DNA of 64,000 nucleotides from assembly GCA_965261735.1 (NCBI GenBank), contig OZ253470.1, positions 4,320,001 through 4,384,000 on the forward strand, written 5' to 3'. The DNA comes from Alphaproteobacteria bacterium (lineage in GTDB: Bacteria > Pseudomonadota > Alphaproteobacteria > SHVV01). The notes under the pieces were generated by a model. That model was not told the origin of the DNA and did not search any database. It saw nothing but the letters and a program-made list of their open reading frames with translations. Every line of letters begins with the position of its first letter. Position 1 is the stretch's first letter. The translations under genes were made by a program, and so were the position numbers. Below are positions 15,908 through 29,330 of the stretch, piece by piece.

Positions 15908-16330
15908 TGTTAACGGCGGAGGAATAATGCTCCACGCGAGGCGGCCGGGCGGTCTGGTCGCGGCGGCGCAAAATTGTGCCACTCATGGTCCCTTGTCGGT
16001 TGCGACGAGGGGCAGGAGATGTACGGCGTGGAGCTCTATGCGGCGGTTCGACTGGCGGTTGTCGACGAGGGTCTGAGTCATCACGAGGCGGGCCGGCGGT
16101 TCGGCATCGACCGTCGCACGGTGAAGAAGATGCTGACCTACTCGGCGCCACCGGGCTACCGCCGGACGAAGCCGGTCCGGCGGCCCAAGCTGGACGGGTT
16201 CACCGGCATCGTCGACGCGATCCTGGAGGCGGACACGGATCCGGACGTGCCGCGCAAGCAGCGCCACACGGCGCACCGGATATTCGAGCGGCTACGGGAC
16301 GAGCACGGGTTCACCGGCGGCTATACCATC
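15908..16330 (+). mobile_element. IS21-family left end plus istA N-terminus
   Basis: TGT start with internal repeats (CGGCGGCGCAAAATTGTGCCAC); HTH and KQRHTAHRIFERLRDEHGFTGGY. Confidence 0.85.
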
Positions 16331-17363
16331 ATGGATGTTCTCGACCGCGCCGATCTCCCATTCCCGCATTCGCTACCCGAGTTCCAGCGACTTTTCCCCG
16401 ATGATGCGGCCTGCGCCGCCTACCTGGAGAAAGCCCGCTGGGGAGACGGCTTTGCCTGCCCGCACTGCGGCACGGCGGGAGAGCCGTTCCACTTTGAAAA
16501 CCGCCCTGGCGTCCTGCGCTGCCGCAAGTGCCGCCAGAACACCGGGCTGACGGTGGGAACAGTGATGGAGCGTAGCCACACTCCGCTGAACGTCTGGTTC
16601 TGGGCCGCTTATCTGGTCGCCAGTCAGACGCCCGGCATGTCCGCCGTGCAGTTTCAGCGGCAACTTGGTCTTTCGCGCTACGAGACGGCCTTTCAAATTC
16701 TCCACAAGCTCCGCTCGGGCATGGTGCGGCCCAACCAAGACAGGATCGGTGGACAGCCCAAGAACCATGTTGAGGTGGACGAAACCTGGGTTGGCGGGCG
16801 AACGCGTGGGGAAGGCCGTGGTGTTCACCACAAGGTTCCCGTCTCCTGTGCCATCGAGGTGCGTCATCGAAAGCCGGGCACCAAGCTCGACAACCGGAAA
16901 GACGGACGCTATGCCGGATGCGTTCGGCTCGCCGTCGTGCTCGACCGTAGCGCCGAGTCGCTCTGTGGGTTCGTCGAGAGCACCGTCGCGCCGCGATCGC
17001 TGATCGTTACTGACGATTGGAGCGGCTATGCTGGCCTCGGTAAGCGCGGCTATGAGCACTTCGCTGTTGCCGAGTGTGGTGATCCAGAGGTTGCCGAGCA
17101 ATACCTGCCGATCATCCATCTGGTTTTCGCCAACCTGAAGACGTGGCTGATCGGTATCCACCACGGCGTTAGCCACCAGCACCTACAAGCCTACCTCAAC
17201 GAGTTCACCTTCCGCTTCAACAGGCGGTTCTACCCGTTCAACGCCTTCCGCTCATTGCTCGGCATCGCGGGCGACACCTCTGCTCCAACCTATGCCGAGC
17301 TTTACTCGGGAGAGTGGTGGCACCCTACATGTAGCGGTCATGGGCGTTAACCGGATAGGCAAG
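16331..17363 (+). mobile_element. IS1595-family element lacking its left end
   Basis: Transposase nearly identical to 48984-50003; right IR AACCGGATAGGCAAG. Confidence 0.9.
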
Positions 17364-25387: not shown

Positions 25388-26389
25388 CTATTTACGGGTT
25401 GCCTTCCCGAACGCCTCGGCGCCGTCGAGAAGCGACACCATCATAATGCGGCGCAGCCCGCAAGCCGCGCCGTCCAGCCGGCAGAGGACGAGGAAATACA
25501 TCTCGCCATCGTCGGGCAGCGATCCGATCAACAGCCGCTCGTCCTCGCCGGCGGAAAGAACCATGTCGAGAACGAGCCGCTTCGCAAACCCGGCCGGCAG
25601 CCCGGCGATTGCCTCCGCCGTCGCCGCGTCGGTGGCCGGCGCCGCCGCCATCACCGCCTTCGCGTCGCCCGCCGAAAGGGTCTCTGTGATATTGGCCAGC
25701 GTCGGGTGCAGCCAGGGCTCGGCTCCGGAATTCCAGCGCGCGCGTTGACGGGCATTCCACATCAGGCGCGGCCCTGTGGCCCGCGCATCGGCGGCATCGC
25801 CGGCGAAGGTCGTGGCGATCCGCGCGGCCTCTTCCGCCTTCGGGGGATGCGCGCGGTGAAAAGCCGCGAGGCGGGCCGCGGCGGTGGCGGCCAGAGCTTC
25901 GACCGGCCTCTCGTCCGCCTTCAGCCAGGACGGGCGCGACGACACTTTACCCGGCGGGCCGGTCAAGCGTTCGCCCGGAAGCGCGCGTATGACGGTCAGG
26001 CGCCAGCTGCCCTCCCGTTTCTCCCATACCGTCGAGACCGCGACGTCCAGCAGCGGGTTGTAATAGAGCGCCCTGGGGGCCGGCGAGCGGAGCCGGCCGA
26101 GCGCAACCATCGTGTTCTCGAAGAACGGCGGCCACAGCTCCGCAAGGGAGCCCTGCGCAAGGCCGCCCGGGATGTGCGAGAGCACCGGCGCGCCCCTGCC
26201 ATCGACGATCTCCGCGCGCAGCGTCAGCGCATGCGCGGCGAAACTTCGGGTTTTGGCATCGGCCCTGGCGGGCTCCGAGAGGGACATCGCGGACAGGAAT
26301 GCGGCGACAAGCCAGGCGAGCACGCAAATCGGATGAATCGTTCCACCATGCCGTGGTGCCGCTGTCTCTCCAAGCCCCAAGCCGATCAT
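25388..26389 (-). CDS. Putative exported hypothetical protein
   Basis: 3' part of the 729-aa ORF; hydrophobic stretch plus ARA signal cleavage motif; start uncertain. Confidence 0.65.
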   Translation of the reverse strand: MIGLGLGETAAPRHGGTIHPICVLAWLVAAFLSAMSLSEPARADAKTRSFAAHALTLRAEIVDGRGAPVLSHIPGGLAQGSLAELWPPFFENTMVALGRLRSPAPRALYYNPLLDVAVSTVWEKREGSWRLTVIRALPGERLTGPPGKVSSRPSWLKADERPVEALAATAAARLAAFHRAHPPKAEEAARIATTFAGDAADARATGPRLMWNARQRARWNSGAEPWLHPTLANITETLSAGDAKAVMAAAPATDAATAEAIAGLPAGFAKRLVLDMVLSAGEDERLLIGSLPDDGEMYFLVLCRLDGAACGLRRIMMVSLLDGAEAFGKATRK

Positions 26390-26436
26390 TGGCCAGTGAC
26401 TCCGACCGTAAATCGCGGCCGTAATGAGACAAGGAT

Positions 26437-27153
26437 TCATGGGCTGAGCGTCCGCGCAACACGGAAACCAATATTGCTGCTGCGGTTCCCGGCCGAGTTC
26501 CTTATGCGGGAAGCGGAGCGGAGGCGCTGCGGGCTGTTGTGCCAGGCACCGCCACGCAAAACGCGCATGCGACAATTGATCCTCGACCCACTCCCGAACA
26601 TTTCCGTGAACATCGTGCAATCCGAAAGCGTTCGGCGGAAACGAACCAATCGGAACCGTCTTACCTCGATCCAACCCCTTGCGGCCCGAGTTGTATGTGT
26701 AGTCCCCATCGTAGTTTGCCTGGTCCGTCGAGATCGTCGACCCGAAGTAGAACGCTTCCGTCGTTCCAGCCCGCGTCGCATATTCCCATTCCGCCTCCGA
26801 CAATAGCCGATAACGCTTCCCGGTCTTCCGCGACAGCCAGCGCACATAGGTCCGCGCCTCCCACCAGCTCACATCGATCACTGGAAGTCGCCCCCGACCC
26901 CAACCCTCGTCATGAGGGTGGTGTTCACGGCAGCCGCCTGCCGCCACGCAGGCGTCCCACTGAGCAAACGTGACCTCGTATTTACCGATCGCATACGGCT
27001 CTAGAATCGTCACTCGGTGCGCGGGGCCCTCATGATCTTCCCGGCCCAGTTGCGACAATCGCGAGCCCATCATGAACGAACCCGACGGAACCACAACCAT
27101 TTCCGGACACTCCTTGCAGTCACGGAATTCCTTTTTTTCAAGCAAGCGTAATT
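26437..27153 (-). pseudogene. Formylglycine-generating enzyme (FGE/SUMF1, C-type lectin fold) domain protein, truncated with an internal deletion
   Basis: FRDCKECPEMV, YRLLSEAEWEY, PNAFGLHDVHGNVREWVED, frameshift, RVLRGGAW...GFRVAR. Confidence 0.85.
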
Positions 27154-27154
27154 C

Positions 27155-27247
27155 CTTGCCTATCCGGTTTACACCCACACCCACTAGGGCTAGAATGGGC
27201 GCAAACCGGATATAGGGGAGCGCGCCATGGATGTTCTCGACCGCGCC
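27155..27247 (+). mobile_element. IS1595 left-end fragment
   Basis: CTTGCCTATCCGGTTTAC... matching 48912 onward. Confidence 0.85.
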
Positions 27248-27359
27248 AGGTCGGGAACCGCCACCCCCGCTCGGCTGCCCGCGCGCGGGTCCCTCCCATG
27301 GACTACGAGGACAAGCTACCACCGAGCCCGTGGTACATCTGTGGACGCCTCCGTTGATG

Positions 27360-27590
27360 CAAGCCTTTCTTCGGACGGTTCGGCACATGCGGTCAGGTGC
27401 AGTCATCTGTCCGGCCTCATGATGCGGCTGGTTTGACGCCGCGGGCCTGTATGGAGATGCGCGGACCGGGTCCAAGATCATTTTTGCGGGCTTGAAAGCT
27501 CCGTGTACCACGACTGGTTTTCCCGATCCCGTCTCGATTGACCGTTTGCCCTTACCTGTCCTCCGACCTGCCCACATCCCCGACGGCTCT
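27360..27590 (-). ncRNA. Predicted bridge/seekRNA of the IS1111 element (boundaries approximate)
   Basis: Contains segments matching both target flanks and both element ends (see findings). Confidence 0.8.
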
Positions 27591-27608
27591 CCGCCTTTCG
27601 CCGTCCTC

Positions 27609-28631
27609 TCAGGCGGCGGCGGGAGCCCGGTAGCTCTCCTTCTTCGTTGTCAGCGCCCAGATGATGCGTGCCATCCGGTTGGCCAGCGCCACCGCGACCA
27701 GCATTCTCGGCTTGCGGGCCAGCATCCTGGCCAGCCAGGGGTCGTTCGTCGCGCCACGCCGAGCCGCCCAGCTGACCACAGCCATGGCGCCCGTGATCAA
27801 CAGCCGCCGCAGATCGCGTTGGCCCATCTTCGATATCCTGCCAAGCCTTGGCTTGCCGCCGGTCGTGTGCTGTCGCGGCACGAGCCCGAGCCAGGCCGCG
27901 AAGTCGCGGCCGCGTCGGAAGCTCTCCATCGGCGGTGCGAAGGCCTGGATTGCCATTGCGGTGATCGGCCCAATGCCGGGGATCGTCATGAGCCGTGCCG
28001 CCTCTTCGTCCTGACACGCGCGGGCGCGGAGCTCCCTCCTCAATCCGTCGATCTTCGCATCGAGGTCCTCGATCCGATCGAGCAGAAGGGCGCCCAGCTC
28101 ACGGACCGATCCTGGCAGCCCTGAACCTGGACCCTGGAGGGCCGATGCCAGCCGATCGACATGAGCCGGTCCCTGCGGCGCGACAACGCCAAACTCCGCC
28201 AGGTGGCCCCGCAACGCGTTGATCGTCTGCGTGCGCTGGCGCACCAGAAGGTCGCGCGTGTGGAACAGCATTCCCCTGGCCTGCTGTTCTTTCGTCTTCA
28301 CCGCCACGAAGCGCATCGTCGGGCGCTGCGCCGCCTCGCAGATCGCCTCTGCATCCGCCATGTCGTTCTTATGCCGCTTCACGAACGGCTTGACGTAGAC
28401 CGGCGGGAGCAACCTCACCTCGTGGCCGAGCTCTCCGATCTCGCGGCCCCATTGGTGAGCGCCCGCGCAAGCCTCCATCGCGACCACGCAGCGCGGCTGA
28501 GAAGCGAGAAAGTCCAGCAATCTCTCCCGGCTCAGCTTCCTGCGGAACACGACAGAGCCGTCCGCCCCAGCACCATGAAGCTGAAAGCTGCGCTTCGCCA
28601 AATCAATCCCGACGATGGTAACCTGTTCCAC
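27609..28631 (-). CDS. IS110-family DEDD recombinase
   Basis: GIDLAK, AMEAC, KNDMADAEAI, IPGIGP, AAWLGLVPRQHTTGG; 340 aa. Confidence 0.95.
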   Translation of the reverse strand: MEQVTIVGIDLAKRSFQLHGAGADGSVVFRRKLSRERLLDFLASQPRCVVAMEACAGAHQWGREIGELGHEVRLLPPVYVKPFVKRHKNDMADAEAICEAAQRPTMRFVAVKTKEQQARGMLFHTRDLLVRQRTQTINALRGHLAEFGVVAPQGPAHVDRLASALQGPGSGLPGSVRELGALLLDRIEDLDAKIDGLRRELRARACQDEEAARLMTIPGIGPITAMAIQAFAPPMESFRRGRDFAAWLGLVPRQHTTGGKPRLGRISKMGQRDLRRLLITGAMAVVSWAARRGATNDPWLARMLARKPRMLVAVALANRMARIIWALTTKKESYRAPAAA

Positions 28632-29129
28632 GGATGCCTCCTCCTTCAGGGGGTCGAACTACAACACCACCTTGGCACATGCAGATGCCGTCGGGAGGAG
28701 GCGTCCACTCCATCATTTTTGCGCCGCCGCGCCGGTACATATTCCCGCCGCCGCAAACAGTTCATATTTTTAGAGAAAATCTGTAACTGATTGTAAAATA
28801 ATAATAATTACTAGATCAAGAAGGGCGTACACCGAGTTTTCTCGAATCCCGTCATCAAACAGAATGCAGATTTTTTCTATAATCTGACCGTCTTTGACTT
28901 CCTTCGGCGCCGCTTGGCAATTCCGGACCGAGCCCCGACCACAGACAGATGGAAGCGGAATTCGGGCAACAGGCGCGCGTTTCCCGCAACCGCGGCAGCG
29001 AAACGAACGCCTGGGCCAGCCCGCGCTGTCGGACGACGCGGCTGACGAGTTCCACCTTCATCCTCCGATCCGCAGCTGAGGTGCCCCTACATCGGGCGCT
29101 TCGAGCGTCCGCAACCCTGATCTCAGTTA

Positions 29130-29330
29130 TACCTTCGCTTCCCGGGCACTGGCTCTCGGAGAGAGTCTCACGATGATCGGCAAGCTCCTCGGACACACCC
29201 AAGTCCAGACGACCGCGCGCTACGCTCACCTCGCCCGCGATTCTATCCAGAATGCCGCCGCGCGGATCACGGGAAGCATCGGCAGTAACTTGATGACAGA
29301 GACGAACGCCGATCAGGCCGGTCGATAGTG
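29130..29330 (+). pseudogene. Tyrosine integrase C-terminal remnant
   Basis: FASRALALGESLTMIGKLLGHTQVQTTARYAHLARD. Confidence 0.8.

Follow-up and report, generated by a model that had tools for sequence, protein, structure and literature searches.

Organization of the Element

The 64,000-nucleotide (nt) stretch of DNA analyzed here, referred to below as the window, comes from an Alphaproteobacteria bacterium (assembly GCA_965261735.1, contig OZ253470.1, positions 4,320,001 to 4,384,000) and carries on its minus strand an insertion sequence (IS) of the IS1111 group, which we call element A. With one copy of its core dinucleotide counted, this element is 1378 bp long and occupies positions 27336–28713. 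All the coordinates are window positions unless they are attributed to the genome contig, and the element is read 5' to 3' on the minus strand throughout. In this direction, the left target flank CGCAAAAA (28716–28723), which is the same in three of the four copies of the element present in the genome and carries a T at position -8 in the fourth, is followed by the left core dinucleotide TG (28714–28715) and by a left end of 82 nt (28632–28713). The left end starts with ATGGAG at 28713 and consists of an ATGGA extension, the 12-bp left subterminal inverted repeat GTGGACGCCTCC (28708–28697) and a GGAGG ribosome-binding site, beyond which comes the GTG start codon of a gene of 340 codons (27609–28631) encoding the transposase, or bridge recombinase. 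The structured part of the 3' non-coding region (27356–27578) is predicted to give rise to a long seekRNA or bridge RNA. The right end (27338–27352) includes the subterminal repeat GGAGGCGTCCAC (27352–27341) and an AGA extension, finishes with ...ACAGA at 27338, and is followed by the right core dinucleotide TG (27336–27337) and by the right target flank TACCACG (27329–27335). The non-coding sequence is 271 nt long downstream of the transposase gene (tnp) vs. 82 nt upstream of it.

The 340-residue product of the open reading frame (ORF) matches PF01548 (DEDD_Tnp_IS110; 54 bits, 1.7e-14), PF02371 (Transposase_20; 87 bits, 1.1e-24) and the NCBIfam model NF033542, "IS110 family RNA-guided transposase", with a score of 322 bits for a cut-off of 140. 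In a phmmer comparison with the proteins of solved structure, it matches the recombinases of ISCro4 (9t56; 2.8e-11) and IS621 (8wt6; 1.3e-8). Residues D10, E53, D90, and D93 align with their equivalents in both of these recombinases, and T257-G258 stands opposite their Ser-Gly pair. Members of the IS1111 group are described as having a transposase of 330–350 residues with the motif GL-P----(S/T)G, subterminal repeats of 7–17 bp with short extensions, and a long 3' non-coding region (Siddiquee et al., 2024; PMC11187229). Element A shows all of these: 340 residues, the motif in the form G249-L-V-P-R-Q-H-T-T257-G258, 12-bp subterminal repeats with ATGGA and AGA extensions, and the long 3' region. 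Insertion into a specific target in a single orientation and between two copies of one dinucleotide, another trait of the group, was likewise found in all four copies, each of which is flanked by TG. On these sequence features, the element belongs to the IS1111 group of the IS110 family.

Guide Segments in the 3' Non-coding Region

The sequence-only reading of this locus held that four short segments of the 3' non-coding region match the target and the ends of the element itself, and every one of the strings, including the flanks, cores and ends, was found where it had been placed on the minus-strand read. The first target guide, CGTGGTACA (27504–27512), is complementary to the top strand of the core plus the right flank. 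The second, CGCAAAAATG (27479–27488), is identical to the left flank plus the core, and hence complementary to the bottom strand. Further downstream, CTCCAT (27451–27456) is reverse-complementary to ATGGAG, with which the left end starts, and this makes it a tentative candidate for a left-donor guide, and the putative donor guide ACAGATGA (27403–27410) corresponds to the last 5 nt of the right end, the core and the first nucleotide of the left end. According to a study of IS1111 elements (PMC11187229), the seekRNA is located 3' of tnp and its match to the top strand precedes that to the bottom strand; the order of the guides in element A agrees with this arrangement.

Chance was assessed on 20000 dinucleotide-preserving shuffles of the non-coding region, in which the terminal 20 nt were excluded to guard against self-match. 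A core-anchored match of at least 9 positions to the reverse complement of the core plus right flank arose in 4 of these shuffles, and one of at least 10 to the left flank plus core in 18; the two target-guide matches are far beyond chance, which is excluded. The 6-mer match to the left end was reached in 668 shuffles and a 7-mer match to the right end plus core in 397, so that each of the donor matches, judged singly, stands at a chance level of 2–3%. The right-end donor match is rescued by its covariation in the family, which is described below, and the left-end match is not.

Copies of the Element and Siblings in the Same Genome

The assembly is a single contig of 5.03 Mb, in which element A is present in four copies (100, 100, 100, and 97% identity), along with one copy of a sibling, B (86%), 14 copies of another, C (81–82%), and several fragments. 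Three of the A copies are 100% identical over 1394–1395 bp, which points to recent movement of the element. All four A copies lie in one and the same site and in the same orientation, with guide matches at 17/17, 16/17, 16/17, and 17/17 positions, one of the two mismatches being a possible rU:dG wobble. The sequence-only reading had named copies inserted at unrelated sites as evidence that would count against it; what was found is a common site matched at no fewer than 16 positions in every copy.

When A, B, and C are aligned, their scaffolds are near-identical and the differences are concentrated in the guide segments. The top-strand guides of A, B, and C read CGTGGTACA, GGTGGGTCA, and ATCCGAACG, and the bottom-strand guides CGCAAAAATG, CGCAAAATTG, and CGCGTAACCG, respectively, while the donor segment is ACAGATGA in A and ACACACGA in C, the right end and core of C being changed identically. 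The flanks, core and ends of the siblings thus differ in step with the guides: B lies between the left flank CCCAAAAT and the right flank ACCCC.. with the core TG, and C between ..GyAAC and TTCG.. with the core CG. The 14 C copies match their own guides near the core only (6–9 of 10 and 4–7 of 9 positions), and C is therefore looser.

The sites of C (for example at 656364–657734 of the genome contig) read ..AAC-CG-TTCG.. near the core, and several of the right flanks show no match at all. Three C copies have a common left flank and two of these also a common right flank, which suggests either insertion into another repeat or later rearrangement. An orphan RNA module was noted at 48704–48911 on the plus strand of the window; it is 89% identical to that of element A, carries guides of the sibling B type (GGTGGGTCA and CGCAATATTG) and has kept the donor segment, has neither a transposase gene nor a right terminus, and gives way to unrelated sequence after GACGTTCAAAG. 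A 77%-identical fragment at 41881–42342 comprises the left end and the 5' part of tnp.

Covariation and Footprint in Relatives Elsewhere

When one genome per species was scanned, 80 loci encoding relatives with 66–86% protein identity were found, and the ORF of element A is full length in comparison with all of them. The metagenome-assembled genomes in which they occur are labeled Alphaproteobacteria, Binatia, Vicinamibacterales, Longimicrobiales, Gemmatimonadetes, Chloroflexota, and others, which suggests that an IS clade with alignable RNA modules has spread recently across phyla. Both ends were placed in 61 of the 80 loci, and the 19 without a findable pair of ends were dropped. Together with 19 copies from the genome studied here, the 61 loci yielded 55 distinct non-coding regions; the removal of three with mispaired ends (L040, L058/L060, L092), recognized by their mismatched cores, left 52, and L106 was dropped because of its short flank. 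Of the 80 elements with paired ends, 73 have identical left and right core copies, and four of the seven with differing cores are cases of mispaired ends.

The guides follow the flanks throughout this set. On average over 40 distinct guide pairs, exact matching anchored at the core runs for 3.8 positions between the top-strand guide and the flank of the same element and for 4.35 positions in the case of the bottom-strand guide, vs. 0.82 and 0.64 in the mismatched pairings (n = 1560). A position-wise count was made on 34 distinct guide pairs, from which 7 of 51 rows without the regular-expression anchors were left out (L069, L070, L083, L087, L088, L109, L110). The bottom-strand guide agrees with its flank at positions -5 to -1 and at the core in a proportion of 0.79–1.00, vs. 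0.24–0.30 at -5 to -1 in the mismatched control, where the largely invariant core also reaches 0.79–1.00; at -6 and beyond, the agreement is at control level. For the top-strand guide, it is 0.68–0.91 at +1 to +5, vs. about 0.35 in the control, and is weak at +6 and +7. It follows from this position-wise agreement that about 12–13 bp are read in the clade, namely about 5 bp of left flank, the 2-bp core and 5–6 bp of right flank. In element A the match extends to -8 and +7, and positions -8 to -6 (CGC) fall on conserved bases of the scaffold; the single A copy with the T at -8 is mismatched there. The specificity of 17 bp proposed earlier is therefore an upper bound: the complementarity does have this length, and the family covariation backs about 12–13 bp of it. 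The description of the element as an intact RNA-programmable recombinase otherwise held good as regards the family, the intact ORF, the catalytic residues and the reading of the guides.

Covariation was also seen for the right-end donor segment, which matches the right end, core and first left-end base at 8/8 positions in 49 of the 52 relatives and at 7/8 or more in all 52. The perfectly matching guide and end pairs comprise seven different sequences, and the number of distinct guide 8-mers is 10.

In one relative (L089:2785-3964), the right-end repeat motif was also seen ten times downstream at a spacing of 131 nt, and these repeats look like a tandem array derived from the right end of the element.

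Predicted RNA Fold

The fold was analyzed on an alignment of 35 chosen rows and 283 columns, containing the four A copies and, with each distinct type represented once, 31 of the 61 loci in which both ends had been placed. RNAalifold predicted 40 pairs in nine helices. Standard pairs occupy 96.1% of the cells, vs. 26–41% when the partners are slid by 1–3 columns, and 13 pairs are altered on both sides in a compensatory manner. None of 500 shuffles attained the observed pairing, the compensatory counts or the covariation score. G-U pairs are frequent in the alignment, which is of the sense strand of the element, as would be seen if an RNA were made from that strand.

A long-range helix (columns 11–19 with 254–262) closes the whole module, within which there are a GGUCA/UGACC helix, an 8-bp stem carrying an internal loop, and a GGCC/GGCC stem with a GCGGC/GCCGC hairpin. 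The internal loop on the 8-bp stem presents the top-strand guide on its 5' side and the bottom-strand guide on its 3' side, and is closed by a short 4-bp hairpin lying between the two guides (27488–27501; GAGC/GCCC; helix 7, columns 96–99 with 110–113), one pair of which is doubly changed in 16 sequences. CTCCAT and ACAGATGA flank the last stem, in a three-helix junction (multiloop). When the consensus fold is laid on this copy, 9 of 9 bases of the top-strand guide, 9 of 10 of the bottom-strand guide, 6 of 6 of CTCCAT, and 8 of 8 of ACAGATGA are unpaired. The earlier proposal that all the segments should lie in internal loops was thus borne out for the two target guides, the two donor segments being placed in the multiloop instead. 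A bridge RNA is reported to be predicted in 93% of IS1111 elements, at the right end and with the donor-binding bases often in a multiloop (Durrant et al., 2024; PMC11208160).

The Target Site

A repeat of about 100–125 bp, present five times in the genome, contains the flanks of all four A copies. One copy of this repeat is followed by istB (IstB_IS21, 1.1e-74) and istA (rve, Mu-transpos_C_2), both of which read towards the repeat, and at the far end of this IS21-like element there is an inverted counterpart of the outer bases of the repeat, the termini reading TGTCAACGGCGG... and TGTTAACGGCGG.... The traits of the IS21 family, namely istA together with istB and terminal inverted repeats beginning with TG, are all present. 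From the adjoining istB and istA genes and the inverted far terminus, it follows that the repeat forms the right end of an IS21-family element. Element A uses a TG core at nt 45–46 from the right terminus of the IS21-like element, between two ATGTACC motifs. In the window, the outer part of this right end is found to the left of the insertion (28716–28753, minus strand), its outermost bases having diverged, and about 60 nt of the rest of the repeat has been kept to the right (27278–27335, minus strand).

The sole intact copy of the IS21-like element (4173193–4177120 of the genome contig) has intact istA and istB genes and carries element A in its right terminus, where the insertion probably cuts the outer terminal repeat off from the remainder of the IS21-like sequence. 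The target-site duplication of this copy was looked for and none was found. The other four copies of the repeat are remnants: one is internally deleted, one retains 40 istB codons, and two are solo ends. Element A occupies four of the five copies of the repeat. The fifth, free copy (2249732–2249825 of the genome contig) has T for A at -1, beside the core. The left ends of the IS21-like elements contain a similar motif, different at 2 of 13 positions, and none of the four A copies is inserted there.

The left half of the free copy corresponds to the bottom-strand guide of sibling B, and its right half is unfit for the other guide of B. An N-terminal istA fragment of the same IS21-like element (95%, residues 1–126) is present in the window at 15974–16351. 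A search of Rfam around the free target site found nothing.

Three other identities of the target were considered and dropped, the IS21-end reading having replaced all of them. The first was the end of a tRNA-linked island: a tRNA 3' fragment was found beside site 4 only, and ARAGORN predicted no tRNA in the five loci. The second was a link between the repeat and integrase fragments (29173–29328 in the window and one other locus), the positions of which are inconsistent between sites. The third was a small ORF on the opposite strand of the repeat (MDY.DKLPP...), in which the substitutions among the five copies are not clearly synonymous.

Elements of the IS1111 group, IS4321 and IS5075, were reportedly shown by Partridge and Hall in 2003 to target sites inside the terminal repeats of Tn21 in one orientation. 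The IS21-end target of element A is a parallel case, in which the host is an IS21-family insertion sequence and the site lies 45–46 nt inside the right terminus, between the ATGTACC motifs. A single literature search at the level of titles brought up no report of an IS1111 element inserted in the end of an IS21 element.

Sequencing Runs and Candidate Promoter

Metatranscriptomes and other runs were examined in the form of contigs, from which depth, strand and RNA ends are not readable. Up to 50–71% of the sampled words of the element occur in the runs. In two RNA-library runs of one study, one contig each runs from 27335 straight on to 28714 and lacks exactly 1378 bp; the shorter sides of these contigs are 30 and 27 letters long, below the threshold of 31 letters, and they give weak support for an uninterrupted site with the predicted boundaries. 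Contigs of three RNA libraries, again from one study, cover 27309–27543 and end at 27543; they are unitig-like and give no evidence for an RNA 5' end there, and the fact that the 27592–27647 bin is uncovered in these three runs is not interpretable. Run X14 contains the joints 27337->28717 and 27338->28722 with 1 and 4 other letters between, and these joints probably represent variant free sites of other organisms.

Joining the right end to the left end in a circle would form TTGCAT-N17-GATGAT across the right end, the core and the left end. The -35-like hexamer TTGCAT (27357–27362, minus strand) is conserved in the alignment and doubles as the 3' strand of the long-range helix. This junction promoter is a weak candidate, since TTGCAT and GATGAT score 3/6 and 4/6 to the consensus, respectively. 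Within the element as integrated, the promoter scan detected no sigma-70-like site on the minus strand.

Interpretation and Alternative Explanations

Taken together, these data make it very probable that element A is an intact, recently active IS1111 element with a DEDD/Thr recombinase and a predicted downstream RNA of the seekRNA or bridge type that reads both the target and the donor. The internal loop would offer two guides, one for the top strand of the core plus right flank and the other for the bottom strand of the left flank plus core, and the three-way junction would offer a segment identical to the right end, the core and the first left-end base, and perhaps also a short segment that complements the left end. 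If element A behaves like ISEc11 and IS621, it may be excised as a circle with a single TG core between its joined right and left ends, and the promoter formed at this junction would drive the expression of both the transposase and the RNA. Transcription would run through tnp into the 3' RNA, which might then be processed into long and short forms. The RNA-protein complex would pair with both target strands and with the donor joint, and strand exchange at the TG core, for which the recombinase would be catalytically competent by the same analogy, would insert the element in one orientation.

Several observations weigh against this interpretation, and each of them is taken up here with the alternative that it would favor, where there is one. 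As far as the RNA is concerned, the stability of the single-sequence fold (z = -1.49) is not significant in comparison with shuffles, and the minimum-energy fold of this copy pairs 3 of 9, 5 of 10, 3 of 6, and 3 of 8 bases of the top-strand guide, the bottom-strand guide, CTCCAT, and ACAGATGA, respectively; the case for the fold rests on the comparative structure because the fold of the single copy is not distinctive. The Rfam search of 27000–29000 at E-values up to 1 returned only a chance match, Ms_AS-4 (E 0.59), inside tnp. No Rfam family covers the predicted RNA, and one might suppose that the matches arose by chance or play their part at the DNA level, the internal copy of the target or end serving as a site for protein binding or recombination. 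This we regard as barely credible: the shuffles, in the case of the target matches, and the covariation exclude chance, the helices keep their pairing through G-U intermediates and compensatory changes on the sense strand, and elements homologous to this one are reported to co-purify with such an RNA (PMC11187229).

The reading of the donor is affected by two further observations. At the position of CTCCAT, a perfect 6/6 match was found in just 12 of the 52 relatives, the segment does not change with the left end, and its only constant part is CCAT/ATGG. Of the match to the circle junction proposed in the sequence-only reading, the right-end half, ACAGATGA, was confirmed by the relatives, and the left-end half, CTCCAT, was not, for want of any covariation. 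In addition, a short 82-nt form of the ISEc11 RNA, devoid of the donor part, is reported to have sufficed, and even to have outdone the 154-nt form in transposition, the role of the long form being left open there (PMC11187229), so that reading of the donor by the RNA may be unneeded. These results, along with the 2–3% chance level of each donor match, would be compatible with an RNA that guides the recognition of the target and flank alone, the ends being read by the protein through the 12-bp repeats and neither ACAGATGA nor CTCCAT acting as a guide. We consider this explanation unlikely, since ACAGATGA follows seven perfect right-end and core sequences, matches at 8/8 positions in nearly all the relatives, and is unpaired in a conserved junction, and since the bases complementary to the donor are described as lying in multiloops in other IS1111 RNAs (PMC11208160).

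Lastly, no unoccupied exact 17-mer or 13-mer target exists in the genome; present activity cannot be deduced from new insertions because no perfect free target remains. The hairpin between the two target guides contains one A.C mismatch in this copy, the gene starts with GTG in element A vs. ATG in the siblings, and the sole free copy of the repeat has the A-to-T change beside the core. All these features would suit an element that has been read correctly here and is nevertheless inactive or stranded, because of a hidden defect or because no target is left. The full-length ORF with its catalytic residues in place, and the three identical copies, which point to recent movement, make this very unlikely. 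No joint between the right and left ends was found in the contigs, in which rare forms are lost, so that circles are not excluded by this result.

Returning to the preferred interpretation of an active, RNA-guided element, a stronger version of it seems to us slightly better than an even bet. According to this version, the long 3' RNA would be a true two-substrate bridge RNA that reads the joint from its three-way junction, element A would be a specialized hunter of IS21 ends that has filled each well-matching copy in its host (4 of 5) and likely disables the terminus it enters, and the siblings would have been retargeted by changes in the guides alone.

Comparison with Known Systems

The RNA-guided mechanism of the IS110 and IS1111 elements is established (PMC11187229; PMC11208160; reviewed in PMC13604230). 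It has been known since 2024, and such proteins are already called RNA-guided transposases in the NCBI family model; element A is thus an expected find, and the present analysis is a complete reading of a further member and not a new mechanism. The closest counterparts described are ISEc11, ISPa11, ISKpn4, and ISPst6 (Siddiquee et al., 2024; PMC11187229), which have the same transposase of about 340 residues, the same motif, subterminal repeats, and the 3' non-coding region. The ISEc11 group also shows the same guide order, matches that overlap at the insertion point, and natural retargeting by replacement of the guides. In contrast with this group, and in a comparison made by description, the target of element A is an IS21-family end, its RNA is a predicted one, and its right-end donor segment is backed by covariation.

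IS621 and ISCro4 (Durrant et al., 2024; PMC11208160; 8wt6, 9t56) belong to the same protein family, and a single RNA serves for the target and the donor around a 2-nt core. In element A, unlike these systems, the RNA is encoded at the right end instead of the left, with its guides in the opposite order; the subterminal repeats are long, a three-way junction and not an internal loop contains the donor bases, and Thr takes the place of Ser at the position of the nucleophile. In ISPpu9 of Pseudomonas putida, likewise of the IS110 family, a gene for a small RNA (Ssr9) lies downstream of tnp (PMC12288879). Its stand-alone ssr9 copies resemble the orphan module at 48704–48911, as far as descriptions can be compared; the target of ISPpu9 is a repetitive extragenic palindromic (REP) sequence, vs. 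an IS21 end in element A.

Four features go beyond the textbook case: the retargeting series, the donor covariation, the footprint of about 12–13 bp, and the near-saturated IS21-end target. The three siblings of a single genome, with their differing guides, flanks and cores, make up a clean natural retargeting series, and about 40 guide and target pairs from several phyla show which positions are read in the clade (about 5 + 2 + 5–6 bp). The multiloop donor segment covarying with the right end bears on whether IS1111 RNAs read the donor in the manner of IS621, and if true, two-substrate reading would settle the role of the "long seekRNA". The fact that the terminus of an IS21-family element serves as the target, with nearly all of its copies filled, amounts to one insertion sequence preying on another.

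Other Features of the Window

The neighborhood of element A looks like a mobile-element graveyard. A short ORF on the plus strand (29173–29328) has a tyrosine-recombinase C-terminal motif, LLGHTQVQTTARYAHL, at its end and, on the strength of this motif, is likely to be an integrase fragment. A short repeat (..GGGCTAGAATGGGCG..CCGGATATAGGGGAGCGCGCCATGGATGT..) is present at 27200–27255 and again just after 48911. It shows a very high summed contig depth in four of the four runs, is separate from the repeats described above, and lies upstream of an ORF with an FGE-sulfatase domain (25388–27577; PF03781, 7e-44).

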